Shown piece after piece: positions 11,737-42,332 of a stretch of DNA of 64,000 nucleotides (within the stretch, counting starts at the first letter, position 1; each line of letters begins with the position of its first letter). The notes beneath the pieces were generated by a model. The model did no database searches and was not told the DNA's origin. It was given only the letters and a program-made list of their open reading frames with translations. The position numbers and the translations under genes are program-made. The stretch spans positions 111,910-175,909 of the forward strand of contig CAWBMM010000017.1 in the NCBI GenBank assembly GCA_963789855.1. Reading direction: 5' to 3'. This DNA comes from an uncultured Actinomycetota bacterium (lineage in GTDB: Bacteria; Actinomycetota; Actinomycetes; JACCUZ01).

Positions 11737-11747
11737 GGGCCGGCCGG

Positions 11748-12599: not shown

Positions 12600-12634
12600 G
12601 GTGCAGGAGTCTAGTTTGCGGGCACGATGCCTTC

Positions 12635-12820: not shown

Positions 12821-12837
12821 GGCAGCCCTGCGCACAG

Positions 12838-12878: not shown

Positions 12879-12890
12879 GATGGCGGGCTG

Positions 12891-14340: not shown

Positions 14341-14366
14341 GCCACCGGGCGGGACCGACGCGCGCG

Positions 14367-15251: not shown

Positions 15252-15311
15252 GCCTCGAGGCTCCTCCAGCGGGAGTCCCCGGACACCCTCATCGTGCCAC
15301 GTCCTGGACCA

Positions 15312-17084: not shown

Positions 17085-17115
17085 GCCACGAGCCTAGTGC
17101 GGCATGACGAGGCGG

Positions 17116-19721: not shown

Positions 19722-19964
19722 TCAGTTCCAGATGGCGCCGCTAGGGTCCACCTTCTTGTTCCAGATGACGCCGGCCAGCTCGACAGGCTTCTTGTTCCAG
19801 ATCGCGCCGGCCTGGTGGGCCGACTTCTTGTTCCAGATGGCGCCGGCCTGGTCGTGGGCGGCGGAGGAGAAGGCTCCGACGAGCAGGGCGGCCGCGACGA
19901 GTGCCAGTGCGGCCAGGAGGCCGATGACGGGGGAGAGGGAGCGGGCGGCGAATGCGCGTGTCAT
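19722..19964 (-). CDS. Small secreted repeat peptide: signal peptide followed by 4 tandem 12-aa repeats with core AG(A/V)IWNKK
   Basis: ORF 19722..19976. ATG at 19964 has a GGAG 7 nt upstream. MTRAFAARSLSPVIGLLAALALVAAALLVGAFSSAA|HDQAGAIWNKKSAHQAGAIWNKKPVELAGVIWNKKVDPSGAIWN. The DNA repeat period is 36 nt. Lys uses aag and codon bias is GC3, which favours this strand over the mirror + ORF (that one uses rare ttg Leu). Confidence 0.4.
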   Translation of the reverse strand: MTRAFAARSLSPVIGLLAALALVAAALLVGAFSSAAHDQAGAIWNKKSAHQAGAIWNKKPVELAGVIWNKKVDPSGAIWN

Positions 19965-20145
19965 GGGGAACTCCAATGTTGGCCCGGGGGTGGGGCGCTG
20001 TTTGTCAGTGGAAATGATCGACGTTGCTCATTCATGGATGAATCATGAGACTCCGTTGACTTGGCAAAGGATGGTCTCGCGTGGCATACGCGGGGACCAC
20101 AGCGACGTAACACGGCGGTAACACCGGCCCGGCACGATCGCGGGC

Positions 20146-21483
20146 ATGGACAAGCAGCAGGAGTTCGTCCTTCGTACGCTCGAGGAGCGGGACATCCGAT
20201 TCGTCCGCCTCTGGTTCACCGACGTGCTGGGCTTCCTGAAGTCGGTGGCCGTGGCGCCGGCCGAGCTGGAGGGCGCCTTCGACGAGGGTATCGGGTTCGA
20301 CGGCTCGGCCATCGAGGGCTTCGCCCGGGTCGCCGAGTCCGACATGCTGGCCAAACCGGACCCGGGGACCTTCCAGATCCTCCCGTGGCGCTCCGAGTCG
20401 CCCGGGACCGCGCGGATGTTCTGCGACATCGTGCTGCCGGACGGCACGCCGGCGTACGCCGACCCGCGACAGGTGCTCAAGCGGACGCTCGCGAAGGCGG
20501 CCGACCTGGGTTTCGCCTTCTACACCCACCCCGAGATCGAGTTCTTCCTGTTCCGGGACCAGCCCGAGGGTGGGCTGCCCCCGGCCCCGGTCGACCAGGG
20601 CGGCTACTTCGACCACATCGCGCACGGCATCGGGCACGACTTCCGCCGCGACGCGATCACCATGCTCGAGTCGATGGGGATCTCGGTGGAGTTCAGCCAC
20701 CACGAGGGCGCCCCCGGCCAGCAGGAGATCGACCTGCGCTACGCCGACGCGCTGTCCACTGCGGACAACATCATGACCTTCCGGCACGTGATGAAGCAGG
20801 TGGCGCTCAGCCAGGGCGTGTTCGCGTCGTTCATGCCCAAGCCGCTGACCGACCACCCCGGGTCGGGCATGCACACCCACCTCTCGCTGTTCGAGGGCGA
20901 GCGCAACGCGTTCTTCGAGGCCGGTGCGCCCTACCAGCTGTCGAAGGTGGCCCGCTCGTTCATCGCCGGCCTCCTGGTGCACGCCGGTGAGATCGCGGCG
21001 GTCACGAACCAGTGGGTCAACTCCTACAAGCGGCTGCTCGGCGGCGGCGAGGCACCGGCGTACGTCTGCTGGGGTCACAACAACCGCTCCGCCATGGTGC
21101 GGGTGCCGATGTACAAGCCGGCCAAGGGCCAGTCGACGCGGGTCGAGCTGCGCACCCCGGACTCGGCGTGCAACCCCTACCTCGCGTACGCCGTCATCCT
21201 CGGCGCCGGCCTCAAGGGCATCCAGGAGGGCTACGACCTGCCGGAGGGCGCCGAGGACGACGTCTGGGCGCTCACCGACGCCGAGCGTCGGGCGCTCGGC
21301 ATCGAGCCGCTGCCGACCAACCTCTCCGAGGCGATCCGGCGGATGGAGGGCAGCGAGCTGGTCGCCGAGGTCCTGGGCGAGCACGTCTTCGACTTCTTCC
21401 TGCGCAACAAGCGGGCCGAGTGGGTGGACTACCGGCGTGAGGTGACGCCGTTCGAGCTGGACCGCTACCTCTCGGTGCTGTGA
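20146..21483 (+). CDS. glnA2: Glutamine synthetase family protein (GlnA2-type, 445 aa)
   Basis: MDKQQEFVLRTLEERDIRFVRLWFTDVLGFLKSV ... FDGSAIEGF ... HHEGAPGQQEIDLRY ... NPYLAYAVILGAGL. Full-length and unframeshifted. Sits immediately upstream of glnE, as in mycobacteria. Confidence 0.85.
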   Translation: MDKQQEFVLRTLEERDIRFVRLWFTDVLGFLKSVAVAPAELEGAFDEGIGFDGSAIEGFARVAESDMLAKPDPGTFQILPWRSESPGTARMFCDIVLPDGTPAYADPRQVLKRTLAKAADLGFAFYTHPEIEFFLFRDQPEGGLPPAPVDQGGYFDHIAHGIGHDFRRDAITMLESMGISVEFSHHEGAPGQQEIDLRYADALSTADNIMTFRHVMKQVALSQGVFASFMPKPLTDHPGSGMHTHLSLFEGERNAFFEAGAPYQLSKVARSFIAGLLVHAGEIAAVTNQWVNSYKRLLGGGEAPAYVCWGHNNRSAMVRVPMYKPAKGQSTRVELRTPDSACNPYLAYAVILGAGLKGIQEGYDLPEGAEDDVWALTDAERRALGIEPLPTNLSEAIRRMEGSELVAEVLGEHVFDFFLRNKRAEWVDYRREVTPFELDRYLSVL

Positions 21484-22215
21484 GCGGGCCGCTCGTCCTC
21501 GTCGTCCAGCACGAGCCGGAGACCGGCCCCGGCTGGTTCGGCGACTGGCTGGCCGAGTCCGGGCTGGTGCTGGACGTCTGGCACGCCTACGCAGGGGACC
21601 CGCGACCGGAGCTGCAGGCGTACGCCGGCCTGCTGGTGCTGGGCGGCGCGATGGCCCCGGGCGACGACGAGGCCTGCCCCTGGCTGCCGGCCACCCGCTC
21701 GCTGCTGGTCGACGCCGTGTCCGCTCGGCCTGCCGACGTTCGGGATCTGCCTGGGCGCCGAGCTGCTGGCGGTCGGCTGCGGCGGCACGGTCCGGCGAGG
21801 GACGGCCGGGCCGGAGCTGGGCGTGCTGGGCATCGAGCTGGCGGAGGCCGCCGCGGCCGACCCGGTGCTCGGCGCCCTGGCCGGCCACCCGTCGGTGCTG
21901 CAGTGGCACTGGGAGGAGATCGCCGAGCTCCCCGCGGGCGCCGTACGCCTGGCGTCGTCCCCGGCGTACCCGAACCAGGCGTTCCGGCTCGGTGCCGCCG
22001 CGTGGGGCGTGCAGGGCCACCCGGAGGTGACCGGCGACATCGCCGCGGCCTGGGCGCGCGAGGACAGCCCGTTGCTGGTGGCCGAAGGACGCACGCCCGC
22101 CGACCTGGTCGCCGAGGTGCGGGCGGCCGAGGCCGAGCTGGCCCGCACCTGGGCACCGGTCGCCCGGGCCTTCGCGGCGGTCGTCCGCGACGGCCGCACC
22201 GCGGCTGCTCGATAG
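21480..22215 (+). CDS. Class I glutamine amidotransferase-like protein (frameshift near 21725)
   Basis: LVLVVQHEPETGPGWFGDWLAESG ... LLVLGGAM. An alternative frame reads LGLPTFGICLGAELLAVGCGG (GATase1 Cys motif), then ORF 21823..22215 continues QWHWEEI ... GVQGHPEV. Start overlaps the glnA2 stop. Confidence 0.6.
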
Positions 22216-22225
22216 CGTTGCCGGC

Positions 22226-25200
22226 GTGACGCGGGCCCGCGGCAGCAGTGCGGAGGCGCGGCTGGCGCGCCTCGGGTTCACCGAACCCGCGCAGGCAGCG
22301 GCCGCGCTGGACTCCGGGGCGCTCGACGGCCTGGTGGACGACGACGACGTGCTGGCCGACCTGGCCGCGACCGCCGACCCCGACGCAGGCGCTGCTGCGG
22401 CTGGCCCTGCTGCTCGAGGCGGAGGCGCGCGACGGCGGCAGGGACCTCGTGCCGACGCTGCGCGACGACCCCGAGCTGCGCCGCCGGCTGCTGACCGTCC
22501 TCGGCGCGAGCCAGGCCCTCGCCGACCACCTGGCCCGGGTGCCGGAGGGATGGCGGACCCTGCTGGCGGACCGCGACGTCCGGCCGACCGCGGCGGGCCT
22601 GCGGCTCGGCGTGCTGCGTGCCATCGACGCCGACCTCGACGCCGACGCACCGACCCTGCTCGGCGGCGCCGCGGCGGTCCGGAGCGCCACCGACGCGCTG
22701 CGACGCACCTACCGCGACTACCTCGTCGGCCTGGCAGCGCGCGACGTCGCCGACGGCGCTGACGTCGCCGACGTGGCCGCCGAGCTGGCCGACCTGGCCG
22801 GCGCCGTGCTCGAAGCCGCGCTGGCGATCGCCCGGGCCGAGCTGGGCGTTGCGGCGTCGACCTGCCGGCTGGCTGTCATCGCGATGGGCAAGTGCGGCGG
22901 CCGCGAGCTGAACTACGCCAGCGACGTCGACGTCGTGTTCGTGGCGGAGGCCGTCGAGGGCATCGCGGAGACTGCCGGCCTGAAGGCCGCCTCCGCACTC
23001 GCCTCGGCGATGATGCGGATCTGCTCGGCCAGCACCGCCGAGGGCACGATCTGGCCGGTCGATGCGGCCCTGCGGCCGGAGGGCAAGGCGGGTCCGCTGG
23101 TGCGGACGCTGGCCAGCCACCTGGCCTACTACCAGCGCTGGGCCAAGACCTGGGAGTTCCAGGCGCTGCTCAAGGCCCGACCGGTGGCGGGCGACCGGGC
23201 CCTGGGCGAGGCCTACCTCGACGCCGTCGCGCCGCTGGTGTGGCAGGCCGCCGAACGTCCCGACTTCGTGACCGACGTGCAGCAGATGCGCCGGCGGGTC
23301 GAGCAGAGCCTGTCGTTGGCCGACAGCCAGCGTGAGCTCAAGCTGGGCCCGGGCGGCCTGCGGGACGTGGAGTTCGCCGTCCAGCTGCTGCAGCTCGTGC
23401 ACGGCCGCACCGACGAGACGCTGCGCAGCCCCAACACCCTGGAGGCCCTCGAGGACCTCTCGACCAACGGCTACGTCGGCCGCGCCGACGCGGCCGAGCT
23501 GGACCGGGCGTACCGGTTCCTGCGCTCCGTCGAGCACCGGCTCCAGCTGCACCGGCTGCGACGCACCCACGTGATGCCGTCCGACGAGGCCGCGCTGCGA
23601 CGGGTCGGCCGCTCGCTGGGCCTGCGCACCGACCCGGTTGCCGAGCTCGACCGGCAGTGGCGGCGGCACGCCCGCGAGGTCCGGCGGCTGCACGAGAAGC
23701 TCTTCTACCGCCCGCTGCTCTCGTCGGTGGCACGGCTGGCGTCCGACGAGGCGCGGCTCACGCCGGAGGCGGCCCGCTCCCGGCTCGAGGCGCTGGGCTA
23801 CCGGGACCCGGCGGGCGCGCTGCGGCACCTCGAGGCGCTCACCGCGGGAGTCAGCCGGCGGGCGGCGATCCAGCGCACCCTGCTGCCGGTGCTGCTCGGC
23901 TGGTTCGCCGACGCCCCGGACCCCGACGGCGGTCTGCTCGCCTTCCGGCAGCTCAGCGACGCGCTGGGCACCACGCCCTGGTACCTCCGGCTGCTGCGCG
24001 ACGAAGGCACCGTGGCCCATCGGCTCGCGCTGCTGCTGGCGAGCAGCCGGTACGCCGTCGACCTGCTGGTCCGGGCGCCCGAGGCGGTGCGGCTGCTCGC
24101 GGACGACGCCGAGCTGGTGCCCCGCAGCCGGGCCGACCTCGGCAGCGAGCTGACCGCGGCGCTCGGTCGCCACGACGACCCGGACTCCGCCGTCGCGATG
24201 GCCCGCGGCGTACGACGTCGGGAGCTCTTCCGGGTGGCCGCGGCCGACCTGCTCGCCCTGGCGACCGTCGAGCAGGTCGAGGAGGCGCTCACCGATGTCG
24301 CCGCCGCCACCGTGCAGGCCGCGCTGGATGCCGCGATCCGGTCGGTGGAGACCTCCCGGGACGGTCCCCTGCCGACCCGGCTCGCGATCATCGCCATGGG
24401 CCGGTTCGGCGGTCGCGAGCTCGGCTACGCCAGCGACGCCGACGTGCTCTTCGTCCACGACCCGCTCGAGGGCGCCGACGAGCAGGACGCCTCGGAGGCC
24501 GCGCACGCCGCCGTTCAGGAGCTGCGCCGGCTGCTCGCGGTGCCCTCCCCGGACCCACCCCTGACGGTGGACGCCGACCTGCGGCCCGAGGGCCGTCAGG
24601 GGCCGCTGGTGCGCACCCTGGCGTCGTACGCCGCCTACTACGACCGCTGGTCGCTCGTCTGGGAGAGCCAGGCGCTGCTTCGGGCCGACCCGGTGGCGGG
24701 CGACCTGGCGCTGGGCGCGGCGTTCCGCACGCTGGTCGACCCGATCAGGTACCGGGAGGGCGGCCTGTCCGAGGCGGATGCCAGGGAGATCCGCCGGGTC
24801 AAGGCGCGGGTCGAGGCCGAACGGCTGCCGCGGGGCGCGGACCCGCAGCGGCACACCAAGCTCGGGCCGGGTGGGCTGGCCGACGTCGAGTGGACCGTGC
24901 AGCTGCTCCAGCTCCGGCACGCCGCCGGCGTCCCCGGACTGCGGACCACCCGGACCCTCCCTGCGCTGCAGGCGGCCGCGGACGCCGGCCTGGTCCGCCC
25001 CGAGCAGGCCCGGGTGCTCGCCCACGCGTGGCGTACCGCCAGCCGGGTGCGCAACGCGACCCTGCTGGTGCGCGGCCGACCGGGTGACACGTTGCCCACG
25101 GACCTGCGCGAACTCACCGGAGTGGCCCGCGTCCTGGGCTACCCTCCCGGCGCGGGGGAGACGCTGGTCGACGACTACCGTCGGGCGACCCGGCGGGCCA

Positions 25201-25232
25201 GAACGGTGGTGGAGCAGGTGTTCTACCGGTGA
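22226..25232 (+). CDS. glnE: Glutamine synthetase adenylyltransferase/adenylyl-removing enzyme (frameshift near 22385)
   Basis: N-terminus in frame 22226 (ARLARLGFTEPAQAAAALD). Remainder in ORF 22248..25232 (994 aa) with two nucleotidyltransferase halves (AMGKCGGRELNYASDVDVVFV and AMGRFGGRELGYASDADVLFV) plus GlnE helical domains. Confidence 0.9.
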
Positions 25233-26511
25233 CGGTGACGGGGGCGGCGCGCTCGGCCCGCGCTGTCCGCGGGCCCGGGACACCGACCTACCGGGGAGTC
25301 CTGCGCAACCCGGAGTTCCGCGGCCTCGTCGTCGCCCAGGTCGCCAGCGAGTGGGGCGACAACATCGCCCGGGTGGCGCTCGCCTCGCTGGTGCTGGTCC
25401 GCACCGACAGCGCCTTCCTCGCGGTGCTGGCCTTCGTGGTGAGCTTCGTGCCGGCCGTGTTCGGCTCCGGGCTGCTGGGGACGGCGGCGGACCGGCTGCC
25501 CCGCAAGGTGGTGCTGATCACCTGCGACCTCGCCCGCGCCGCGCTGATAGGCGTGCTCGCGCTGCTGGCCGTCGACGGGACGCCGGTCTGGGCCCTGCTC
25601 CTGCTGCTGCTCGCGGCCGAGACGTTCACCGCGCCGTTCGCGGCCGCCCATCGGTCGGTGGTGCCCGACGTCCTGCCCGACTCCCGGGAGTGCCTGGCCG
25701 GCTTCGGGATGCTGCGGGTGCTCAACCAGGTCGACCAGGTGGCGGGCATCGTGCTCGCAGGTGTCGTGATCGTGCTGGTGGGGGAGCAGGCCGGCCTGAT
25801 GCTCGACGTGGCGAGCTTCCTCGTCTCGGCCACGGTGCTGGCCCTGACCTTGCGCTGGCGCCCGGCGACCCGGGCCCCCGACGAGCACTCCACCCTGGTG
25901 GGCGACTTCCGGGCCGGCTGGCGGCTGGTCTTCGACGACCCGTCGCTGCGCGCGCTGGTGCTGCTCGGGTGGAGCGCGGCGGTCTTCCTGGTGGCTCCGG
26001 AGGCCGTGGCTCTGGCGTACGCGCGCAGACGACGGAGCCCCGGCGGTGGTCGGCGCCGCCCTGCTTGGCGGCGCTGCCGGCGGGAGCGGCCCTCGGGGCC
26101 TGGCTGGTGACCCGTCGCGACCCGGTCTGGCAGGTGCGCTCGATCGTTCCGCTGGCGGTGTGCGCCTGCCTGCCGCTGATGGTCACCTGTCTCGCCCCGC
26201 CGTGGCAGGTCGTGCTCCCGCTGTGGTTCCTCTCCGGCCTGGCGCAGGGCTTCATGGTGCCGCTGATGACCACGGTGAACCTGGTGTCGCCGGCCTCGAT
26301 GCGCGGCCGGGTGAACGGCCTGGCCGGAGCCGGGTTCTCGACCGTCACCGCCGCGGTCTTCCTGCTCGCGGCAGCCGTCGCCGACCTGGCGACCCCGGCG
26401 GTGGCGGTCACGCTGGCCGCGGTGGTGGGCCTGGCGCTGGTGGGCGTGGCGCACCACGGCTGGCCGAAGGCCGAGCTGCAACGGGTGGCCGTCCGGATCT
26501 ATCGCGGGTAG
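25229..26511 (+). CDS. MFS transporter (EntS/YbdA-like), frameshift near 26030
   Basis: ORF 25229..26110 (NPEFRGLVVAQVASEWGDNIARVALASLVL ... multiple TM helices) continues in the frame of ORF 24778..26511 (LAALPAGAALGAWLVTRRDPVWQVRSIVPLAV ... FSTVTAAVFLL). Confidence 0.7.
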
Positions 26512-26687
26512 CTGAACCGGACGACACGCTGATCTCGGGGCAATCGCCCCCATTCCCCGCGCCTGGCGGCGGCGTACGGCAGACTGATCGCGGCCCGGGG
26601 GGTCGCAGCGGCGCAGCCAGCCGTCGCGGGCAGCTCCCGACGCGGCCCGCCAGCCCGTCCTCGCCAGCCTCCAGGAAGTCCTCACTG

Positions 26688-27995
26688 ATGCGCATCGCCA
26701 GCCGACCGCCTCGGGTCCTCCGGCCGCTGCTCGCCGCAGCCCTCGCCGGTGTCCTTGCCGTCACCCTCCTCCCGGCGACCCCCGCGTCCGCCGCCAACGT
26801 CAAGATCGACAAGCGCCTGTTCGGCATGCACGACAGCGACCTGACCAGCTGGCCGGCCGTGTCGCCGGGCTCGGTACGGCTGTGGGACGCCGGGGTCACC
26901 TGGCGGGACATCGAACGCTCGCCCGGGGTGTACGACTTCTCCCGGCTCGACCAGTACGTGCGCGCGGCCAACGCCCACGGCGCCGAGGTGACCCTCGTCC
27001 TGGGGATGACCCCCGACTTCTACGCGCCGGCCGGGGGCAACGCCACCTCGATGCCGGCCGACCCTGCCGTCTGGACCAACTACGTGCGGGCCGTGGCGAC
27101 GCACTACAGCCCCGCCAACTGGCAGGGGCGGCGCGGGATCGCCGCCTACCAGGTGTGGAACGAGGCGAACGTCACCGGCTACTGGACGGGTACGCCGCTC
27201 GACATGGCCAAGCTGACCAAGGCCACCTGGAACGCGGTCAAGGCGGTGGACAAGGGAGCGCTGGTCATCAGCCCGGCGTTCGCGGCCCGGATCGCCGAGC
27301 AGATCCGTGGCATCCAGCGGTTCGCCTTCGCCAGGGTCAACGGCATCCCGGCCTGGCGGTACACCGATGCCATCTCGCTCAACCTCTACCCGAAGGACAA
27401 GTACGGCACCGCCCTCGGGACGCCCGAGACCTCGATGGCACTGCTGGCGACGGCCCGCAAGCTGCTCGGCTTCGGCGGCGTCCCGCCCACCAAGCCGATC
27501 TGGAACACCGAGGTCAACTACGGGCTCGCCTCCGGCGGGACGGGCAAGTCGACCGCGATCTCCGCCGAGAAGCAGGCGGCGTACGTGCTGCGGACCTTCC
27601 TGCTCAACGCGGCCAACGGGGTGCAGCGCGTCGACTGGTACATGTGGGACCGGCCGCAGCTCGGCAACACGAAGCTGACCACGAGCACAGGGGTGCCGAC
27701 GCTGGCGGGGCGGGCCTTCGGACTCGCCCGGTCCTGGATGGTCGGAGGCACGCTGGTCGGGCCGAGCAAGGCGGCCAAGCCCTGCGCCAGGGACCGGGCC
27801 GGCACCTACACCTGCGTGATCACCTACGCCGGCGGCGTCCGGCGGGTCTACTGGAACCCCACCAAGAAGGTGACCGTGAAAACGGCCAAGAGCGCCACGT
27901 TCAAGGTGGGCGTCTTCGGCAAGCGGACCAAGATCAAAGGTGGCTCTCGCCAGTCTGTCGACTACCGTCCTCTGATGGTCCGTTCCAAAGCCTGA
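26688..27995 (+). CDS. Secreted glycoside hydrolase (clan GH-A TIM barrel, GH5/GH39-like)
   Basis: Signal peptide (MRIASRPPRVLRPLLAAALAGVLAVTLLPATPASA). Acid/base-like YQVWNEANV and nucleophile-like PIWNTEVNYG motifs. C-terminal beta-rich tail. Confidence 0.65.
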   Translation: MRIASRPPRVLRPLLAAALAGVLAVTLLPATPASAANVKIDKRLFGMHDSDLTSWPAVSPGSVRLWDAGVTWRDIERSPGVYDFSRLDQYVRAANAHGAEVTLVLGMTPDFYAPAGGNATSMPADPAVWTNYVRAVATHYSPANWQGRRGIAAYQVWNEANVTGYWTGTPLDMAKLTKATWNAVKAVDKGALVISPAFAARIAEQIRGIQRFAFARVNGIPAWRYTDAISLNLYPKDKYGTALGTPETSMALLATARKLLGFGGVPPTKPIWNTEVNYGLASGGTGKSTAISAEKQAAYVLRTFLLNAANGVQRVDWYMWDRPQLGNTKLTTSTGVPTLAGRAFGLARSWMVGGTLVGPSKAAKPCARDRAGTYTCVITYAGGVRRVYWNPTKKVTVKTAKSATFKVGVFGKRTKIKGGSRQSVDYRPLMVRSKA

Positions 27996-28103
27996 CCAGA
28001 TTCTCGGAACCTCGGGACCGATTCACACGTCCTCGTAAGACCTGCCGGGCCCCATCGCGCCCCTGACCACCATGCCGCCTCACCACCGGGAAACCACTTT
28101 CAC

Positions 28104-29357
28104 ATGACTCGCTTCACGACTTTGTCCCGTCGGCTCCTCGCGATCGGGGCCGCGGTCGGCCTGGGGCTCACGCTCCTGCCCGCCGGCCCCGGCTGCGGCC
28201 GCCACCCCGCGCATCCCGGGGTCCTTCTTCGGCATGCACGACGGCGACGCCGTCAGCTTCCCGGCAGCGCCGGTCGGGGCGGTCCGGCTCTGGGACTCCG
28301 GCGTCAGCTGGCGCGAGATCGAGACGGCTCCCGGCCGTCTTCGACTTCACCCGCGTCGACGCCCAGGTGAACGCGGCCCGCGCGCACGGCGCGAGCGTGC
28401 TCCTGGTCCTCGGGCAGACGCCGCGCTTCCACTCGACCAAGCCAGGCAAGCGTGGCTCCTACGGCCTGGGCGCCGCGTCGATGCCCACCGAGACGTCCTG
28501 GAAGAACTACGTCTTCGCGGTGGTCAAGCACTTCAAGGGACGCGGCGTCGACTACCAGGTGTGGAACGAGGCCAACGTCGCGGGCTACTGGCAGGGCACC
28601 CCGAAGCAGATGGCCACCCTGACGCGACTGGCCTCGACGGTCGTCAACCGCAACGACTCGTCGGCGAAGGTCGTGTCGCCGGCGATGGCCACCCGCCTCT
28701 CCAGCCAGCGGTTGTGGCTGCGCACGTTCTACGCGCAGAAGACCGGCGGCAAGAAGGTCTCGGCCTACGTCGACGTGGTCTCGCTCAACCTCTACCCGCT
28801 CGCGAGCCAGAAGCCCGAGGCGTCGATGACGCTGCTGGCAGCGACCCGCACCATGCTTCGGGCCGCCGGCGTGCGGAAGCCCATCTGGAACACCGAGATC
28901 AACTACGGTCTCGCTCGGCGGCGGCACGGCGAAGACGGTCGCGGCGGACACCCAGGCGGCCTACGTCGGTCGCACGTTCCTGCTGAACGCCGCCAGCGAC
29001 GTGAAGCGCGTCTACTGGTACTCCTGGGACCTCCAGCGGCTGGCGAACACCAGGCTCACCTTCGCCGACGGAGTGACGCTGACCAGGGCGGGCACCGCCT
29101 ACAACGTGGTGCGCGGCTGGCTGCTCGGCTCACGGGTCAGCGGTTGCCCGCGGGACAAGGCGGGGACCTACATCTGCACGATGACCTACTCGGGCGGCGT
29201 GAAGCGGGTGTACTGGAACCCGTCCCGCAAGACGTCGGTGCGCACGGTCAAGTCGGCTCGCGCGGCGGTCAACCTGCTGGGCAGCGAGCGCGTCCTGCGC
29301 GGCGGCGAGCGCATCGCCGTCACCAAGTCGCCGGTCATGGTCAGGTCCGCGAAGTAG
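28104..29357 (+). CDS. Tandem paralogue of the preceding glycoside hydrolase, with 3 or more frameshifts
   Basis: The same motifs appear across ORFs 28104..28370, 28367..29497 and 29001..29357: FGMHDGDAVSFPAAP..VRLWDSGVSWREIE, YQVWNEANVAGYWQG, PIWNTEINYGL and VKRVYWYSWDLQRLANTRLT ... RVYWNPSRKTSVRTVKSA. Confidence 0.6.
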
Positions 29358-29370
29358 CTCTTCCTCGTCG

Positions 29371-29413
29371 ATCGAGAGGCCCTCGCCGGTACGTTCGGCG
29401 GGGGCCTCTCGGC
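29371..29413. terminator. Hairpin between convergent genes
   Basis: gagaggccctcgccggtacgttcggcgggggcctctc (stem GAGAGGCCC/GGGCCTCTC) lies between the GH stop at 29357 and the RDD stop at 29422. Confidence 0.5.
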
Positions 29414-29421
29414 GTACGACG

Positions 29422-29925
29422 TCAGGCTTCTGCGGCCGGCCCGGCTGCGGGCGGCGGAGGCAGCACCTGCGAGCCGCCCGGCACCGCCATCGGGTGACCC
29501 GGCTCCCGCAGTCGCGTCGTCCAGTCGTAGATCACCGAGGTACGCAGCACGGTGTCCTGCAACGACCGGTTGGACGGGCTGATCAGCACCCAGTAGAGGC
29601 CGATGGGCAGCACGGTGCAGAACGTTGCCCGCACCACCGCGCCGGACCAGCGCATCCGCTCGCCGCGGAAGTTCACCACCCTCAGCCCCAGCAGGTGGTT
29701 GCCGTAGGTGCGCCCCGTGGTCGCCCAGGACACCGTGAAGTAGATGATCAGCACGACGGCGCCGCAGGCGAGGATCACGATGAACTGAGGCGCGGGAAAG
29801 GTGAAACCCGTCGGGTTGATGAGGAAGCGGACGGCGCACCAGGTCACGTAGCCGGCGACGAGCACGCGCGACGTCGATACCGAAGTCGACGGCGTTCGCC
29901 AGGGTGCGGGTGACGGCGCCTGCAC
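29422..29925 (-). CDS. RDD-family membrane protein
   Basis: 167 aa with 3 predicted TM helices and RDD-family layout (VRFLINPTGFTFPAPQFIVILACGAVVLIIYF ... GNHLLGLRVVNFRGERMRWSGAVVRATFCTVLPIGLYWVLI). Sits immediately downstream of, and in the same phase as, the repeat-protein gene. Confidence 0.6.
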   Translation of the reverse strand: MQAPSPAPWRTPSTSVSTSRVLVAGYVTWCAVRFLINPTGFTFPAPQFIVILACGAVVLIIYFTVSWATTGRTYGNHLLGLRVVNFRGERMRWSGAVVRATFCTVLPIGLYWVLISPSNRSLQDTVLRTSVIYDWTTRLREPGHPMAVPGGSQVLPPPPAAGPAAEA

Positions 29926-30000
29926 GGCGGCCCTGGAACGGGCGAGCCTCCACCGGTACGGCGTCCACCGTGCGCGTCGCGGGTGGGAGCTCTCGCTCGG

Positions 30001-31743
30001 TCACGAAGGCCCCTTGGTCAGTGCGTCGTCGACGGACTCCGGCGACGTCGTGGGCTCGGGCACCGCGGCCTCCGGCGAGACGGTCTGCCGGCCGCGTCGG
30101 CGCAGCAGCACCCGGTCGACCATCCGCGCGACCGCGGCGTCCGCGTCGACGCTCTGCATCCGCATGCCGCGCACGGCCTCGGACGCCACCGAGCCGGTCG
30201 AGTCGCGGATGATCTCGGGCAGGTCGATGCCCTCCACGACGTACTCGGCGACGCCGATCAGGTCGACCTGCTGCAGCACGATCTGGGTCAGGTCCAGCCG
30301 CTGCAGGGCGGCCCCGACGACCAGGCCGAGGTCGACCCGGTCGACGACGATGGTGGTGAGGTCGAGCGTGTCGATCGCGCTCGTGACGACCTGCTCGAGG
30401 TCGACCCGGTCGAGCACCAGCGCGGTGAGGTCGAGCTGGTCGAGGACGTCGGAGACGAGCGGACCGAGCTGGATGCGCTGCACCGCCGCGGTCACGACGG
30501 CGTCGAGGTCCAGGCTCGCGACCACGGTGTCGACGAGGCGGCCGAGATCTATCCGGCCGAGCACCGCCGTCGCCGTGGCGTCCAGGTCCAGCTGCTGCAG
30601 CGCCGTGTCCACCGCGGCGTCGAGGTCGAGGCCGGTGAGGGCCGCAGCGACGACGCGATCGAGGTCGAGCCGGGCGACGACCGTCTCGGCCGCGGTCGTG
30701 AGGTCGACCCCCGCCACCACCGCGGCGACGGTGCGGTCCAGGTCCAACCCGGCCAGCACCGAGCCGACGGCCGCATCGAGGTCGAGGGCCGGTACCGCGG
30801 TCGCCACCAGCGCGTCGAGGTCCAGACCGCGGACGGCGGTGCTGGCCGCCCGCGTCAGGTCGAGGCGGTCCAGCGCGGTGGCCACCGCGCGGTCGAGGTC
30901 CAGCCGGGCGAGGACGGCGCCCACCACGCGGTCCAGGTCGAGCCGCTCGACCGCCTGCTCGGCGGCACCGGAGAGGTCCAGTCGCCCGAGCACGGTGGCG
31001 ACCGCCCGGTCGAGGTCGACCCGGTTGAGGGCTGTCGTCAGCAGGGCGTCCAGGTCGAGCCCGGCGAGAGCCTCGTCGACGACCCGGTCCAGGTCGGTGC
31101 TCTCGACGGCTGCCGACGCCACCCGGGTGAGGTCGATCCGGTCGAGCACGGCCAGGGTCACCGCCTCGACGTCCAGGCGCGCCACGACGTCGCTGACCAG
31201 AGCGTCGAGATCGAGCCGGTTGAGGACGACGCCGACGACGCGCTCGGAGTCGACCTGGCTCATCGCCGCATCGACTGCGCCGGGGAGCGCGGCAGCCGAC
31301 CAGCGGCCCAGCGAGCGCACCGTTTCCGGTCGGTCCCGCCGCCAGCGGTCGATCAGGAGCTGGGCCGTGTGGCCGGGCTGCAGGACGGGCGGCACCAGGG
31401 GCGGTCGAAGCGCGAGGTCGATCAGCGGTACGGCGACCCGCGATCCCGCGGCGGCCAGCCGTCCCGACAGCCGAGCCGCTCCCCAAGCGGTGCCGACCAC
31501 CAGGTCGGCGACCTCGACGAGCGGCACCCGGGCGCCGGGGTGCGCGTCGGCCGCTGCCGGCTCCCCGACGGTGCGCAGCGCGACACCGAGACCGACCGAG
31601 AGCAGGCCGAACCCGACGCGGACCGCCTGCGCGACCGCGTCCGCGAGGTCGGGCGCAGCAGGAGCGGGCCGAGGGTCGAGCACGATGACGCGCTCCTCGT
31701 CGCCCGGTCGCGGCACCGCTCCACCTCCCTGGTCAAAGGTCAC
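30001..31743 (-). CDS. Repeat protein: about 170-aa unique N-terminus followed by about 27 tandem 13-residue repeats with core (R/G)(L/V)DLD
   Basis: 580-aa ORF. The repeat units include RLDLDRVVGAVLA, RLDLDRAVATALD, GLDLDALVATAVPA and GLDLDAAVGSVLA. The DNA period is about 39 nt (gaggtcgac spacing). Ala/Leu/Val/Asp/Thr composition and the unique N-terminus support the minus strand. The two long + strand ORFs (29983..31764, 30014..31837) are mirror images. Confidence 0.6.
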   Translation of the reverse strand: MTFDQGGGAVPRPGDEERVIVLDPRPAPAAPDLADAVAQAVRVGFGLLSVGLGVALRTVGEPAAADAHPGARVPLVEVADLVVGTAWGAARLSGRLAAAGSRVAVPLIDLALRPPLVPPVLQPGHTAQLLIDRWRRDRPETVRSLGRWSAAALPGAVDAAMSQVDSERVVGVVLNRLDLDALVSDVVARLDVEAVTLAVLDRIDLTRVASAAVESTDLDRVVDEALAGLDLDALLTTALNRVDLDRAVATVLGRLDLSGAAEQAVERLDLDRVVGAVLARLDLDRAVATALDRLDLTRAASTAVRGLDLDALVATAVPALDLDAAVGSVLAGLDLDRTVAAVVAGVDLTTAAETVVARLDLDRVVAAALTGLDLDAAVDTALQQLDLDATATAVLGRIDLGRLVDTVVASLDLDAVVTAAVQRIQLGPLVSDVLDQLDLTALVLDRVDLEQVVTSAIDTLDLTTIVVDRVDLGLVVGAALQRLDLTQIVLQQVDLIGVAEYVVEGIDLPEIIRDSTGSVASEAVRGMRMQSVDADAAVARMVDRVLLRRRGRQTVSPEAAVPEPTTSPESVDDALTKGPS

Positions 31744-32069: not shown

Positions 32070-33550
32070 TCAGTCGCGGTGTCGTTGGGTGAGCTGGGTG
32101 ACTGCGTATCGGTGGTGTTGTCGGGGCCGGCGGTCGGGGTCGATGGATGGCGGTGGTTCCAGCTGGGGGTGGCCGTTGGCGGCGAGGGTGACGGTCCAGC
32201 CTTGGCGGTGGACCATCCGGTGGTGGTAGGGGCAGAGCAGCGCGGCGTTGGTCAGGTCGGTGGGTCCGCCGTCGATCCAGTGCCTCGCGTGGTGGAGCTG
32301 GCAGGCGGCCGGTGGGCGGTCGCAGCCGGGGGCGGTGCAGCCGCGGTCGCGCAGGGCGGCGGCGCGGCGTTGGGCGCGGTTCCAGACTCGGGTGCTGCGG
32401 CCGAGGTCGAGGACCTGGGAGGGGCCGCCGAGCACGGCGGGGATCACGAGTGCGTCGCAGGCGAGCTGCCGCAGGGTGGCGGCGGAGATGGTGCCGCCGG
32501 TGTCCAGCCGGCCGGCGGCGGGCAGGGCGGCGCGTAGGCCGGTGGCGGTGGTGGTGATGGTGAGCAGCGCCAGGGGTGCGAGCGGCCCGCTCGGCGCGGT
32601 CTGCTCGCCGTCGGTGTCCTGTTCGTCGAGGGGGTCGGTGAGCGACCCGCCGACAATGCCGTCGCCGACGTCGTCGCCGTCGGGTGCCGCAGCGTCGGGT
32701 GCCGAGCCGTGGGGTGCCGGCAGCGGCGGCGGCGAGCAGCTCGACGATGGCGTCGCCGCGGCGTTCGGCGGGCAGCCGCTGGTCCGGCAGGCTGTCGGTG
32801 CCGGCGGCCGGCCGGTCGGGCGCGGTCGGTGCGGTCGGTGCGGCGTAGCCAGGCGTGCAGGGTGGCCTCGCCGAGGGGGCCGAGGTCGAGGACGGCTCGG
32901 AGCCGGCCGCGCCGGCGGGTCACCCGCAGGTCGTTGCGTTCGGCGGCTTGGGCGTCGGCTTCGGCGCGTTGCTGGTCCCGGTCGAGGGCGGCCGCCTCGG
33001 CGGGGTCGTCCTCTGACGGGGTGCGGGTGAGGGCTTCGACGACGGCTCGGCCGGCGCGGGCCAGCTCGGGTGGTGTCAGCGCGGCGCACTGCTCGAGGAG
33101 GAACCTGGCCGCCGCGGTGCGGTCCTGGTCGGCCAGCCCGGGCAGGGCGGCGACCTGGTCCAGCGTCGTGGCGACCGTGGTGGCCTGCTCGACGGTGACG
33201 GCGCCGGCGGTGAGGGCGTCGCGGACCGGCCGGTGGCGCAGCAGGTCGCCGGCCTGCCGGATCCGGGCGGCGGCGTCGGTGCGGGAGAGCCGGAACCGGT
33301 CGCCGAGCCAGCGGACCAGGTTCGGCGCGCCGGTGCGGGACTTCAGGTCCCGCTGGTCGGCCTCGCCCAGCAGCAGCCCCTGCAGCACCGCCGTCTTCGC
33401 CTGCACCTCGAACACGGTGGCGAGGGCGGTCTCGACCTGCTGGTCCGAGAGCTGCCAGACCTGGTCGGCAGCCGCGGACTCCAGGCCGGCCGACACCCCC
33501 TGCAGCCCGGCCACCACCGGGTGCTCGAACGTGACGTCGGCCTGACTCAT
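32070..33550 (-). CDS. DUF222 + HNH endonuclease protein (REP13E12-like), frameshift near 32700
   Basis: N-terminal DUF222 in ORF 32444..33550 (MSQADVTFEHP ... LSDQQVETALATVFEVQAKTAVLQGLLLGEADQRDLKSRTGAPNLVRWL). C-terminal HNH in ORF 32070..33590 (CTAPGCDRPPAACQLHHARHWIDGGPTDLTNAALLCPYHHRMVH). Confidence 0.75.
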
Positions 33551-33843
33551 GGGCCGAACCTAACCGGGACCCTGGACACAAACCCCGCATGACTCCGGGC
33601 CGAATACCGTTGTGGACAAAGGCTTTTCGGTGCCACCAAGGGCACTGGCATCTCGGCCTACGGCACGGGGCAGCCGGTCATGGCGTGAGTCAGCGCACTG
33701 CGAAGGCGAACCTCGGACAGAGGTCCCGGCGACGAGGTCGTTCGAAGCGCAGACTCGAAGCGCCGGAGGCTTAGCGAAATCCCTCTACTGCTGGAAGCGA
33801 AATCACCCGCGCCGGCGCCGAACACATCCGCCGCCACCCGACT

Positions 33844-34857
33844 TTAGTGTCTGCGAGCTCGCTCCACCGACAGTCGGCCAGGCACCAGGATCAGCAGAGC
33901 ACCGCTAAGAATCAGCACGAACGACAGTGCCAGCGTCGGAGCCGTTCCCAAGGGTGGGCCGGTGTGCGGCAAGGTGCCGCCACCAGAACCACCTTCGCCG
34001 CCAGCAGCGACTCCACCAGCGGCCGTCGTGCCAGCCTTCGTCGCCAACACCGAGGCCCCGGACGCGGCCGCTGAGGTGGCCGTCACTGTCACAGTGGGAC
34101 CGGATGCGGTCGCAGTCTGGGTCGCCGTGACCGTCACCGTCGAACCCGGGGCCGTAACTGTCGCCGTTGAACCTGGTGCCGTCACGGTCTCTGTTGAGCC
34201 CGGCGCGGTCACGGTGGTCGTGGCCGTCGTGGTCTCGGTCGGACCGGGCACGGTCACGGTGGTCGTGGCGGTCACTGTCGCCGTCTCCGTCTCAGTGCGG
34301 GTCGCCGTCGCCGTGACCGTCCGAGTCGCGGTCACGGTCTCGGTGGCCGTCGCGGTTGCAGTGGGTGTGGCGGTTATGGTGGCCGTCACGGTGCTCGTCC
34401 GGGACACCGTGATCGTGGGCCCGGTGACTGTCGACGTGACGGTGATCGTGGGGCCGGGAACTGGCGACGTGACGGTGATCGTGGGGCCGGGGGCAGTGGT
34501 CGTCACGGTGACCGTCGGCGTCGGAGCCGCCGGAGGATTGCAGTTGTTCGCCAAGATCAACTGACCCTCTGGCGACCAGTTGAGACCCGGAAACAGACCG
34601 TCGTCGTCCGCGAAGGGCGGAATGATGTCCCCCCAGTCGCTCAGGCCGGGCGCCCACACCGGACCGGTGTGCTCCCTGGCATGGTTCCGTGCCGAACTCT
34701 CCGAGACGGAGATCGTGAGGTAAGGATTGCTCGTCGCATTTGTCCGATGGCAGATCGTCACTTGGTCCTGTGCGCTGGCCACCCCAACGCCCATCCATGG
34801 CGCCAGCCCGAGCACCACGAGCAGGGCCCCGAGGGCTCGCAGAGCGTTGATCTTCAC
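33844..34857 (-). CDS. LPXTG-anchored Thr/Val/Ala-rich cell-surface protein
   Basis: GTG start at 34857 with GGAG upstream. Signal peptide VKINALRALGALLVVLGLAPWMGVGVASA. N-terminal domain QVTICHRTNATSNPYLTISVSESSARNHAREHTGP. Long TVTATxTATATATETVTAT low-complexity region. C-terminal LPHTG, hydrophobic helix, then RARRH (sortase sorting signal). Confidence 0.7.
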   Translation of the reverse strand: MKINALRALGALLVVLGLAPWMGVGVASAQDQVTICHRTNATSNPYLTISVSESSARNHAREHTGPVWAPGLSDWGDIIPPFADDDGLFPGLNWSPEGQLILANNCNPPAAPTPTVTVTTTAPGPTITVTSPVPGPTITVTSTVTGPTITVSRTSTVTATITATPTATATATETVTATRTVTATATRTETETATVTATTTVTVPGPTETTTATTTVTAPGSTETVTAPGSTATVTAPGSTVTVTATQTATASGPTVTVTATSAAASGASVLATKAGTTAAGGVAAGGEGGSGGGTLPHTGPPLGTAPTLALSFVLILSGALLILVPGRLSVERARRH

Positions 34858-35342
34858 GGGTACCACTCCTCGCCCGCGACTCAGGCCGGTCACCCACCAT
34901 GGAACAGGGACCCGGTGCGGCCTCAACTCGGCTGGGCTAGTCGACGACCAACACTTGGCATTCGCCTACCGATCAGGGCATGGCGCTCACGGTAGCCACC
35001 TGCAACAACCCGGTCTACCCCGTCATTCGGAACCGTCACCGCGGTTCATGGGGTGTGCGGCTTGGCAAGCCCGCGGCGGAGGTCTCAGGCATCGCCCGGG
35101 CGTACTGGATTCCGGGCTCGGTGTAGTCGCTCGCCACGACCTACTAGGAGCCGTCGCGGCTGCGGTACTGGTCGCGCAATGTGGCGATATACCAGGGCCG
35201 TCGTCGTGCTCGGCCACTTGTGGCCCGACGCAGATGAGTCCGCACGGGCCGCCGTCGGTTCGATGCTGGCGGCTCGTGCGGACTCCCTGCGGACTAGCGG
35301 ACCCCTCCAGGCGTAGAACCGCTGGTCACAGCCATGTTGATC

Positions 35343-40229: not shown

Positions 40230-42332
40230 ATGCCCCGACCAGCGCTGCTCCGCTGGCTCGTCCCCGCCCTGCTCATCCTCGGCTGGCTCGGCATCGGCGC
40301 CGTGGCCGGGCCGATGGCCGGCAAGGTCTCCGACGTGCAGAAGAACGACAACGCCTCGTTCCTGCCGGCCAACGCCGAGTCGACCAAGGCCCTCGAGCTG
40401 GACAAGGCCTTCACCGGCAGCGAGACCGTTCCGGCGATCGTCGTGTGGGAGCGCTCCAGCGGCCTGACCGCGGCAGACCGCGCCGCCATCGACGCCGCTG
40501 CCCGAGAAGATCGGCGACATCGACGGCCTCTCCGGACCGCCGAGCCCCGTCATCCCGTCGAAGGACGGCGCGGCCGCCCAGCTGGTGGTGCCCCTTCCGG
40601 GTGCGGACAGCTTCGACGGCGCCGGCCCGATCGTCGCGGAGATCCGGGTCGAGGCGGCCGAGGTCCCCGCCGGGGTGTCGTCGCACGTGACAGGGCCAGC
40701 CGGGTTCATCGCCGACCTGTCCAAGGCGTTCGAAGGCATCGACGGCCAGCTGCTCGTGGTGACCGGGCTGGTCGTCCTCGTCATCCTGCTCGTCGTCTAC
40801 CGCAGCCCGGTGTTCGTCCCGGTGCTGCTGTCGGCCGGGCTCGCCCTCACGACCGCCCAGGCAGCGGCGTACCAGCTGGCGAAGAACGAGGTGATCACCC
40901 TCAACGGGCAGAGCGCCGGCATCCTGCTCGTCCTGGTGTTCGGTGCCGGCACCGACTACGCGCTGCTGCTCATCAGCCGGTTCCGTGAGGAGCTGCACGT
41001 CCACGAGCGGTCCTGGGACGCCATGCGGGTGGCCTGGCGGGCCACCGCGGTGCCCGTCATCGCGTCGGGGTCGACAGTCGTGATCGGGTTGCTGTGCCTG
41101 CTGCTGTCGGACCTCAACTCCAACAGGTCGCTCGGCCCGACGGCAGCGGTGGGCATCGTCTCGGCGATGCTGGCCATGCTGACCTTCCTGCCCGCCCTCC
41201 TGCTGGTGCTGGGACGGCGCTGGTTCTGGCCGTTCCAGCCCGGGTGGGCGACGAGCACGACGTCGAGTCAGGGGTCTGGGGCAAGGTCGCCCGGCTCGTC
41301 GGCCTGCGGCCCGTCGCGGTGGCGGTGGTGACCACGCTGGCGTTGAGCATCCTCGCCCTGTTCGCGGTGACGTTGAACGCGACGGGCATCGAGTCGACCG
41401 ACCAGTTCGTCGGCAGCTCCGACGCCGTCGACGGCCAGGAGGCGCTGCTGCGGCACTTCCCGGGCGGCTCGGGGTCGCCGGTGACGGTCTACGGGCCGGC
41501 GGACCAGGCCGAGGAGCTGCAGCGGGTGGTCGCCGGCACCGACGGGGTCTCCGACGCGGCGCTGGTCGGCCAGGACGGGGTGCCGGCGCAGTCCGGGCCG
41601 CCGAAGGTGGTGGACGGCCAGGTGCTGGTGCAGGCCACCCTCGAGGACGCCCCCGACAGCCCGGCCGCCGAGTCGACCGTGAAGCGGCTGCGGCTCGCCG
41701 TCGACGACGTCTCTCCGGAGGTGCTCGTCGGGGGCACGACCGCGGTCAACCTCGACATCAAGACCGAGTCGACCCGGGACGCGCGTGTCATCATCCCGGT
41801 CGTCCTGGCGGTGATCTTCGTGATCCTGGCACTGCTGCTGAGGTCGCTGGTCGCGCCGGTGCTGCTCGTCGCGACGGTGGTGCTCTCGTTCTTCGCGACG
41901 CTCGGGGTGTGCGCGGTGGTCTTCCGGCACGTGCTGGGGTTCGCGGGGATCGACCCGTCGTTCCCGCTGTTCGCGTTCGTGTTCCTGGTCGCGCTCGGCA
42001 TCGACTACAACATCTTCCTGATGACCCGGGTGCGGGAGGAGTCCTGGAAGCTCGGCACCCGGCCGGGCACCTTGCGAGGACTCGCGGTCACCGGTGGAGT
42101 CATCACCTCAGCTGGTGTGGTCCTCGCCGCGACGTTCGCCGCCCTCGGGGTGCTGCCGCTGGTGCCGCTGGCCGAGATCGGGTTCGCGGTGGCGTTCGGA
42201 GTGCTGCTGGACACCCTCGTGGTGCGGTCTCTGCTGGTGCCGGCCGTCACCTACCTGCTGGACGGGCGCATCTGGTGGCCCGGTCGCCTGGCGTCGGTGA
42301 CCGCCCAGCCGCAAGACTCGCAGGATGACTGA
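40230..42332 (+). CDS. MMPL-family (RND superfamily) membrane transporter, frameshifts near 40500 and 41250
   Basis: ORFs 40230..40988, 40585..41331 and 41094..42332. Twelve-TM MMPL topology with [35 protein letters not shown] and a periplasmic loop. Confidence 0.8.

Follow-up and report, generated by a model that had tools for sequence, protein, structure and literature searches.

Does the long tandem-repeat protein of an uncultured actinobacterium belong together with the membrane protein that is encoded next to it, and if so, what might the two proteins do? This question is raised by a locus on contig CAWBMM010000017.1 (assembly GCA_963789855.1, an uncultured Actinomycetota bacterium of lineage JACCUZ01), of which we analyzed positions 111,910 to 175,909 of the forward strand. 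This stretch of 64,000 nucleotides (nt) is called the window hereafter and all coordinates refer to it, unless another contig is named. Its minus strand carries a gene for a protein with 27 short repeat units, immediately followed by a gene for a membrane protein of the RDD family. Below we show that the same two genes are found side by side throughout a large set of actinobacterial genomes, and we tentatively propose that they encode an acidic helical rod and its membrane tether.

Conservation of the gene pair

The repeat protein has 251 relatives according to a search of 5.8 billion proteins, and a scan of 185,579 species, each represented by one genome, gave 330 stretches that encode such a relative. 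The analyses of pairing, overlap and neighboring genes were based on the best 80 of these 330 stretches. They take in isolates of Nocardioides, Terrabacter and Pedococcus, cultured strains that thus carry the pair, as well as metagenome-assembled genomes (MAGs) of Dermatophilaceae, Nanopelagicales, Frankiaceae, Jiangellales and Streptosporangiaceae. Cultured carriers include Nocardioides terrigena KCTC 19217, N. ungokensis LMG 28591, Terrabacter lapilli JCM 15628 and Pedococcus cremeus, but most of the organisms are uncultured actinobacteria from soil, and the one of the window is a soil actinobacterium too. In all 80 loci the repeat gene is immediately followed, on its own strand, by an RDD homologue that ends 320 to 880 nt past it. 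The partner RDDs match the RDD open reading frame (ORF) of the window with phmmer E-values of approximately 1e-13 to 1e-59, the match being weak for locus L067. Stop and start codons overlap as NTGA in 41 of the 80 loci, and several more show an overlap of 8 nt. The overlap reads GTGA in the window, which suggests translational coupling.

In two of the loci (L012, 3881..5494, and L023, 3907..5506) a single open frame of 532 to 538 codons encodes the repeat protein and, after it, the RDD protein. A Pro/Ala-rich linker connects the two proteins, and the Pfam RDD match is found at residues 389-512 of L012. Such a frame may be either a genuine fusion or the result of a stop codon lost in a long-read MAG. 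Repeat and RDD proteins are also mixed in one cluster at 90% identity. An earlier note on this DNA, made without database searches, had suggested that the two genes may form a pair; with adjacency in every locus, overlap in at least 41 and a single frame in two, this suggestion is supported. All-against-all clustering of the ORFs in the 80 loci revealed no third conserved gene. The best cluster is present in 24 of the 80 loci, and recurring neighbor clusters are noisy and contaminated by antisense shadow ORFs of the high-GC DNA. We therefore regard the locus as a self-contained, translationally coupled gene pair. The literature on RDD proteins holds precedents but nothing that describes this gene pair.

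The features of the locus are as follows (all on the minus strand, apart from the extra base, for which no strand is given).

30001..31716, minus: repeat-protein gene, 571 amino acids (aa) from GTG 31716, based on the ORF, its homologues and the gene call on a sister contig
30001..31743, minus: the same gene with an alternative start, 580 aa from the upstream GTG 31743
31724..31729, minus: GGGAGG, Shine-Dalgarno-like, 7 nt upstream of GTG 31716
31219..31716, minus: N-terminal non-repeat region of approximately 166 aa, from alignments and structure prediction
30193..31218, minus: 27 tandem units, of which 24 have 13 aa and 3 have 10 aa, from a motif scan, autocorrelation and structure prediction
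30004..30192, minus: C-terminal region, from conserved columns and a predicted helix
30003..30001, minus: stop codon TGA of the repeat-protein gene, read from the sequence
30001..30004, minus: GTGA start/stop overlap of 4 nt, the GTG of the RDD gene over the TGA of the repeat gene
29422..30004, minus: RDD-family membrane protein gene, 193 aa after removal of a 1-nt insertion (Pfam PF06271)
29866..29866: single extra base in a GCGCG context, from the translated frames compared with homologues and from the sister-contig alignment

The repeat-protein gene is real

At 72-76% GC, extended open frames are to be expected on either strand, and several such frames are indeed seen. A sister contig (ENA ERZ25039490 contig_4324, loci L084 and L085), located by way of glnA, is a soil-metagenome contig of 1.2 Mb that is 98.96% identical to window positions 10143..31489 across 21.3 kb. 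It encodes a 571-aa protein that agrees with the one of the window in 562 of 571 residues, without gaps. The two copies of the repeat gene differ at 39 nucleotides and by no indel, and 30 of the 39 differences fall on the third codon position of the minus-strand frame. Read in this frame they amount to 29 synonymous and 9 non-synonymous codons, whereas the remaining five frames all perform worse (8:30, 22:15, 2:35, 5:32 and 2:35). This synonymous excess, limited to the minus frame, shows that the repeat gene is real and that its protein is under purifying selection. The GC content per codon position is in line with this (GC1/GC2/GC3 of 0.85/0.47/0.92 in the same frame). The plus-strand ORFs, which the earlier note had taken for mirror images of the repeat, are indeed antisense shadows given the high GC3, the low GC2 and the distribution of substitutions.

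A reading frame of 580 aa, as initially described, does exist, but translation probably starts at GTG 31716 rather than at GTG 31743, giving 571 aa. This start is chosen because a GGGAGG motif precedes it by 7 nt, homologues open with 'MP...' and the gene caller picked the same position on the sister contig. An exact database look-up of the protein returned no record for either start. Rfam, promoter and terminator scans around the operon yielded nothing credible, the sole line being a chance match to mir-598 (E 0.44).

The RDD gene and its frameshift

According to the initial description, an RDD membrane protein follows the repeat gene in the same phase. The family assignment stands, as the Pfam match to PF06271 confirms, but the boundaries of the ORF were wrong: the shared phase is a by-product of the 1-nt insertion at 29866 and the true start is GTG 30004. 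The ORF of 167 aa at 29422..29925 matches Pfam RDD with an E-value of 8e-10 (39.6 bits against a cut-off of 24.1, profile positions 25-135) and covers only the 3' part of the gene. The frame that opens at GTG 30004 reads VTERELPPATRTVDAVPVEARPFQGRRAGAVTRTLANAVDFGIDVA, which is the conserved N-terminus of the subfamily, and then loses register; the remainder continues in the frame of the 167-aa ORF. After correction the protein has 193 aa and matches positions 2-135 of the 137 in the profile (E 5.7e-11, 43.3 bits).

The corrected protein is identical in 192 of 193 residues to P0274, which is found intact on four short-read contigs from four samples, each time with the 4-nt overlap to the upstream gene. 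The sister contig lacks the insertion of the window and has a different indel of its own elsewhere in the RDD gene; the overlap reads ATGA there. Because the intact form exists in four other assemblies, we read the frameshift as most likely an assembly error, or else a rare allele, and not as biology. We also considered that the RDD gene is a pseudogene, which is countered by the same intact 193-aa forms.

A broader comparison of the window with its sister contig points in the same direction. There are 30 indels, mostly of 1 nt, against 189 substitutions; several genes that are frameshifted in the window are intact on the sister contig, and the reverse is seen as well. This looks like long-read assembly error in both, and any ORF boundary in the window therefore needs checking. 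Other split genes in the window are those for a biotin carboxylase, a DUF222-HNH protein and a glycoside-hydrolase paralogue, while glnA, glnE, nadE, lpd and the GGDEF-EAL gene are intact. The RDD ORF of the window is likewise not intact as written, since the insertion leaves it in two frames.

The partner RDDs make up a tight, dedicated actinobacterial subfamily with many near-invariant positions. Among the 80 RDDs the motifs rAG.vtR..a...D and nrS.QD.vLrtsV.yDW are shared, with upper-case letters conserved in at least 90% of the proteins and lower-case letters in at least 60%. These motifs, which include a conserved Arg and two Asp (R...D near the first transmembrane (TM) segment, D after the last), are all kept in the corrected RDD of the window. 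Kyte-Doolittle averages over 19 residues peak at 2.68 (approximately residues 48-66 of the 167-aa ORF) and at 1.80 (approximately 97-115), and a third, weaker hydrophobic segment (FGIDVAVLVAGYVTWCAVRFL) lies ahead of these two stronger ones. The partner is thus predicted to be a membrane protein with three TM segments.

The repeat array and its family

The core hydrophobic-Asp-hydrophobic (h-D-h) is found 27 times by the motif scan, between residues 176 and 517 in the 580-aa numbering. The first 20 units are spaced by exactly 13 residues, and the last seven by 10/13/10/13/10/13/13. Their consensus is [R/Q]-h-D-h-[D/T]-x-h-h-x-x-h-h-[D/E], with two Asp per unit, one of which is invariant; the array has a net charge of -36 and the whole protein one of -37. 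Residue identity at lag 13 is 0.345, compared with 0.126 +/- 0.018 for 2000 composition-preserving shuffles (z = 12.4), and peaks of equal height are seen at lags 26 and 39. Tandem Repeats Finder detects the array in the DNA as well, with 65-77% matches at periods of 39, 78 and 117 nt. Nonetheless, the periodicity that had been called near-perfect is so in register only and not in sequence: units are 41-79% identical in DNA and approximately 40-50%, on average, in protein. Such a low identity indicates that the array is old and diverged, and not of the kind that assemblers collapse or inflate. The estimate of about 27 repeats agrees with our count of 27 and with the same number on the independent sister contig. 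The low identity between units together with the equal count in a second assembly rules out that the repeat number is an assembly artefact.

The array is embedded in conserved non-repeat sequence. Upstream of it, the N-terminal region carries the motifs AQAVRVGFG, GTAWGAARLSGR, LRPPLVPxxLQP and RWxRDRPET, and its P, W and R columns are invariant or nearly so. Conservation in the family peaks in the stretch (GIDLP)EIIRDSTGSVASEAVRGxRMQxVDAD...VDRxLxRRR, which spans the end of unit 27 and the C-terminal segment. Neither region has a match among the sequences of the PDB. Within the array, the last three double units (10+13) are the part that is kept across the whole family, and approximately units 6-19 are extra in comparison to the homologues.

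All 251 relatives are labelled as hypothetical or, wrongly, as pentapeptide-repeat proteins. They measure 320-440 aa, stem from Actinomycetota MAGs and share at best 49-50% identity over approximately 70% of the query. An exhaustive profile search against 1.84 billion representatives at 50% identity yielded a far larger family of 1,521 clusters at E <= 1e-3, of which 1,099 at E <= 1e-10. The architecture is constant: an N-terminal region of approximately 165 aa, a variable run of units, three (10+13) double units and the conserved C-terminal stretch. Pooled over the family, the 13-mer reads [R/Q]-[V/L]-D(94%)-[L/V]-[D/G/E/T]-x-[V/L/I]-[V/A]-x-x-[V/A]-[L/V/I]-[D/E] and the 10-mer [Q/R]-h-D(95%)-L-T(87%)-x-h-V-h-[D/E]. 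Certain sub-families are built of 9- and 10-residue units instead.

When units are counted with flexible spacing, so that those of 9 residues are included, 198 complete proteins have a median of 9 and a maximum of 20 units, against 27 in the window. The copy in the window is the longest 13-mer array that we have seen, yet it is not the longest array: L009 (4025..6008, MAG MFD05674.bin.1.215) holds at least 37 units of 9-10 residues. This array contains about nine near-identical blocks of 37 aa (IVAGVDIDAVATRIDIEAILNRLDLTALVQQRVDLNA), and its upstream part lies in another frame owing to an apparent indel, so that the true array is longer still. The amplification in L009 is recent and large. A smaller case is P0002, with three identical blocks of 23 aa. 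The spread in unit number and the near-identical blocks mean that the arrays expand repeatedly and independently.

The earlier note could not assign the repeat to a known family, and our searches lead to the same outcome. No family in Pfam or NCBIfam matched when the window protein, one typical homologue and a diverse set of 138 representatives were scanned. For the window protein the sole Pfam line is ARM_KDM8_N (E 0.72), which at 10.3 bits stays below its cut-off of 27, and the 138 representatives produced two isolated single-member matches and no repeat family. PADLOC was without match at E <= 0.1 for the window repeat protein, its 372-aa homologue P0005 and the corrected RDD, as was PHROGs for the first two at the same threshold. 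No match to the repeat protein was found among PDB sequences, nor by Foldseek against the PDB at E <= 0.001. A literature search on 13-residue repeats gave only unrelated results, such as the LD motifs of paxillin.

Two groups of known repeats were considered and rejected. The Pentapeptide repeat (COG1357 YjbI), which is the JGI label on a few homologues, does not fit a period of 13; lag 5 is at background level and Pfam Pentapeptide is unmatched. The alpha-solenoid families HEAT, ARM, TPR, Sel1, LRV and PPR show no profile match, and the unit found here is a single helix in 13 residues.

Predicted structure and location

Structures were predicted with AlphaFold2 (AF2) in two runs. One used the window protein with an alignment of 27 sequences, and gave a mean predicted local distance difference test (pLDDT) of 62.9 and a predicted template-modelling score (pTM) of 0.26. 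The other used P0005 with 121 sequences, and gave a mean pLDDT of 67.2, reaching 70-87 over most repeats. In both runs each 13-residue unit forms an 11-residue helix with a 2-residue break at h-D, each 10-residue unit forms an 8-residue helix, and no beta strand is predicted. Both models also show four N-terminal helices and one long C-terminal helix, which in the window protein comprise residues 33-60, 75-112, 123-137 and 139-163 and residues 508-545, respectively. Beyond the C-terminal helix come a basic patch and then a variable tail. An all-alpha array is hence predicted, and a helical repeat scaffold is the better description. The beta-solenoid that had been offered as an option is not supported by either prediction, with a helix in every unit and not a single strand. 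The other option of the earlier note, an amphipathic repeat scaffold, may hold.

The models give a structural meaning to the consensus. The invariant Asp lies in the 2-residue break just ahead of each helix and the D/T position in its first turn; we read the former as a helix N-cap. Hydrophobic positions 4, 7, 8, 11 and 12 are found on one helical face, and from one class of unit length to another (9, 10 or 13 residues) the step is about one helical turn.

With regard to location, the repeat protein has no N-terminal signal-like segment and no hydrophobic stretch that is free of charges; its borderline hydrophobic windows (Kyte-Doolittle approximately 1.6) hold Arg or Asp. The N-terminal helix 33-60 was considered as a TM anchor and rejected, as homologues have Asp, Glu or Arg within it. 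Given the missing signal peptide, the charged hydrophobic windows and these acidic residues in the helix of the homologues, we take the repeat protein to be cytoplasmic. In the RDD protein, arginines cluster in the N-terminal segment and in the loop between the second and third TM segments, which by the positive-inside rule places its N-terminus in the cytoplasm. This N-terminus comes directly after the C-terminus of the repeat protein in the two single-frame loci. From these sequence features we infer both the cytoplasmic location and the orientation.

Proposed role and alternative explanations

The reading that we prefer, though it falls short of being probable, is that of a cytoplasmic, length-variable, acidic helical rod that is tethered to the membrane by a dedicated RDD partner. 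The locus itself is a translationally coupled operon of two genes that many Actinomycetota share. Its first product would combine a helical N-terminal region, a variable array and a conserved C-terminal helix with a basic patch; within the array, a hydrophobic stripe at i, i+3, i+4, i+7 and i+8 would pack the helices onto each other. Both proteins would form a membrane complex, with the repeat protein anchored at its C-terminal end to the inner membrane face by the RDD protein. The helices of the array would together make up an elongated rod or scaffold; the number of units would set its length, and it would keep the N-terminal region at a distance from the membrane, as a spacer or scaffold. 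Physical complex, rod-like tertiary shape and spacer or scaffold role are all inferred here.

A bolder version, which we consider doubtful though worth stating, is that the family represents a new class of alpha-helical repeat. In this class a single Asp-capped helix of 7-11 residues, within units of 9-13 residues, would build a length-tunable acidic rod that docks its C-terminal helix onto the RDD N-terminus. To our knowledge there is no alpha-solenoid repeat with a shorter unit than these 9-13 residues. If true, the RDD domain would gain a defined, genetically tractable protein ligand, and RDD proteins could be seen as general membrane adaptors.

Several observations weigh against the tethered rod. 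The pTM of 0.23-0.26 is too low to decide between a rod, a superhelix and a bundle. Proteins that sit at an anionic membrane do not usually have an acidic polar face. None of the 120 closest RDD homologues has the fused form, and the two single-frame loci come from long-read MAGs with indel errors, so that their frames may reflect lost stops. The gene neighborhood provides no functional context. One alternative is that the genes are co-transcribed but their products act independently, the repeat protein being a soluble cytoplasmic scaffold or a storage-like protein; in its favor, RDD proteins are widespread and have many different neighbors. Yet adjacency holds in 80 of 80 loci, from Nocardioides to MAGs of Frankiaceae and Nanopelagicales, the RDD subfamily co-varies with the pair and the stop/start overlap is kept, which makes independent action quite improbable in our opinion. 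The main rival is instead an ion-handling module, with the RDD protein as a cation/proton transporter and the Asp-rich array binding or buffering Ca2+, Mg2+ or polyamines at its cytoplasmic mouth and thereby gating or regulating transport. Such a role would agree with the Na+(Li+,K+)/H+ antiport by the RDD protein of Halobacillus andaensis, which relies on conserved R and D residues (PMC5996927), with the strong acidity of the array and the invariant Asp of each unit, and with a Na_H_Exchanger gene that adjoins the pair in one locus. However, this transporter is not conserved across the 80 loci, and the close RDD relative SppI of Bacillus subtilis is without a salt or pH phenotype (PMC7568657). 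Moreover, the invariant Asp sits in the break before the helix, which indicates a structural role, and no EF-hand, RTX or other known cation-binding geometry and no Pfam match was found. We therefore think that an ion-handling module is unlikely.

The other explanations carry less weight. Decay of the locus, with a genuine frameshift in the RDD gene and a long array due to relaxed constraint, would account for the RDD gene as written, for the other accessory genes that are split and for an array far above the median length of the family. It is nevertheless very unlikely, given that the insertion is absent from the sister contig and that the four short-read assemblies carry the intact RDD (192/193); the ratio of 30 indels to 189 substitutions is typical of long-read error, and the repeat gene itself has its 29:9 ratio and no indels. 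A beta-solenoid or exported surface protein was suggested by the strand-like alternation of Leu-Asp-Leu-Asp and the abundance of Val. We give it hardly any credence in view of the helices that AF2 places in all units in both runs and of unit lengths (9/10/13) that fit helical turns. In addition, neither a signal peptide nor a TM segment is present in the repeat protein, Pfam and NCBIfam are without match, Pentapeptide and other repeat families included, and 13 residues are very short for a coil of a beta-helix. That the ORF is no gene at all but a by-product of a high-GC DNA repeat, or that a plus-strand ORF is the real one, draws on the long frames that are open on both strands at 72-76% GC. 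This explanation is next to negligible: the codon-position GC pattern backs the minus frame, 30 of the 39 differences are at the third codon position, and the 1,521 clusters have conserved non-repeat ends.

Other features of the window

Directly upstream of the repeat gene lies a gene for a DUF222 protein with an HNH endonuclease domain (32070..33590, minus), split in two frames. DUF222 positions 4-207 are found in ORF 32444..33550, and positions 233-306 together with HNH in ORF 32070..33590; on the sister contig only a 283-aa version is called. Another gene (33844..34926, minus) encodes a protein of 360 aa with an N-terminal hydrophobic segment and low-complexity Thr-Val-Thr-Ala-Thr repeats, without Pfam match; its C-terminal LPHTG and hydrophobic tail make it look like a sortase-anchored wall protein. 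On the other side, two tandem paralogous genes for secreted glycoside-hydrolase-like proteins (26646..27995 and 28104..29357, plus) with weak GH39/Glyco_hydro_cc matches run towards the RDD gene in convergent orientation. Of these two, the second is broken up into at least three frames in the window and is intact with 416 aa on the sister contig.

Further repeats occur in the window. At 1..1240 (plus) there are four tandem domains of 111 aa that resemble acyl carrier proteins (ACPs), with a period of 333 nt and 95% identity; their 12-residue motif has a Thr in place of the Ser that is usual in carrier proteins. Downstream, up to approximately 9600, come Biotin_carb_N, CPSase_L_D2, Biotin_carb_C (biotin carboxylase) and a carboxyltransferase domain, and as the ACP-like copies and the carboxylase lie in different frames, several frameshifts must be assumed. 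At 12991..13202 (minus-strand coding) a 54-nt tandem repeat of 3.9 copies (99% identical) encodes 18-residue units within a basic Lys/Ala/Thr-rich protein that resembles a histone H1 or HU tail; its counterpart on the sister contig has no Pfam match. A 33-nt tandem repeat (GTGCTCGGCTGATTTCCCGTGCGGTGCGGCCCG) is found at 53185..53294, with 3.3 copies that are 93% identical. Genes for NAD synthase, a GAF-GGDEF-EAL protein, glutamine synthetase and GlnE adenylyltransferase (15300..25300) are intact, as are those for an Lpd-like pyridine nucleotide-disulphide oxidoreductase (51213..52598) and an MMPL transporter (41094..42332). The intact core nitrogen and cofactor genes indicate that the window is chromosomal and not part of a mobile element.

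Comparison with known systems

Overall, the second gene encodes an ordinary member of the known, if poorly understood, RDD family, and the first a member of a family that is undescribed in the libraries queried. RDD domains are widespread and their role is debated (cation/proton antiport, protease regulation or an intramembrane ligand site), and a subfamily that is locked to a single soluble partner in all 80 loci offers a clean system for what RDD binds and does. About 1,500 clusters without Pfam coverage, built of unusually short single-helix units of 9, 10 or 13 residues, should also be of interest to the fields of repeat proteins and protein design. Their unit number, from a handful to more than 35, amounts to a natural experiment on array length versus function.

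In alpha-solenoids such as HEAT, TPR, Sel1 and the 24-residue LRV, a unit comprises 24-40 residues that form two or three helices. The array resembles them in its tandem short amphipathic helices, tight turns, variable number of units and probable scaffold-like role, but it differs in having single helices with 9-13 residues per unit, no similarity in sequence or profile to any Pfam repeat family and no Foldseek match in the PDB. Another class consists of the 11-mer amphipathic-helix proteins: apolipoproteins, perilipins, alpha-synuclein and group 3 LEA. Short periodic amphipathic helical units and long arrays of variable length are shared with these. In contrast to them, the period here is 13 (or 9/10), each unit has an Asp break, and the polar face is acidic instead of Lys-rich; moreover, conserved non-repeat regions flank the array and its gene is tied to that of a membrane protein.

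The second protein agrees with the RDD family (PF06271) in being full-length and above the gathering threshold, and in its R/D motifs and hydrophobic TM segments. Unlike other RDD proteins, the partner subfamily has an N-terminal P.EARPFQGxRAG extension and sits behind a repeat gene in all 80 loci. Other members of the family include an RDD domain fused to VanZ, with the domain reported as a likely holder of an intramembrane site that faces the cytoplasm (PMC12419801), and the RDD domain of Mas1B/Mam1B (PMC1810536). Precedents for operon partners of RDD exist: a heterodimer of an RDD protein with a C40 peptidase has been predicted (PMC13181095). The closest parallel is the RDD protein SppI (YteJ) of B. 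subtilis, which forms a membrane complex with its operon partner SppA and regulates it (PMC7568657). As in SppA-SppI, the RDD gene described here adjoins a co-oriented operon partner. This partner, however, is no protease: it is an unclassified acidic helical-repeat protein without a peptidase or any other Pfam domain, and the gene order and the stop/start overlap are specific to this module.

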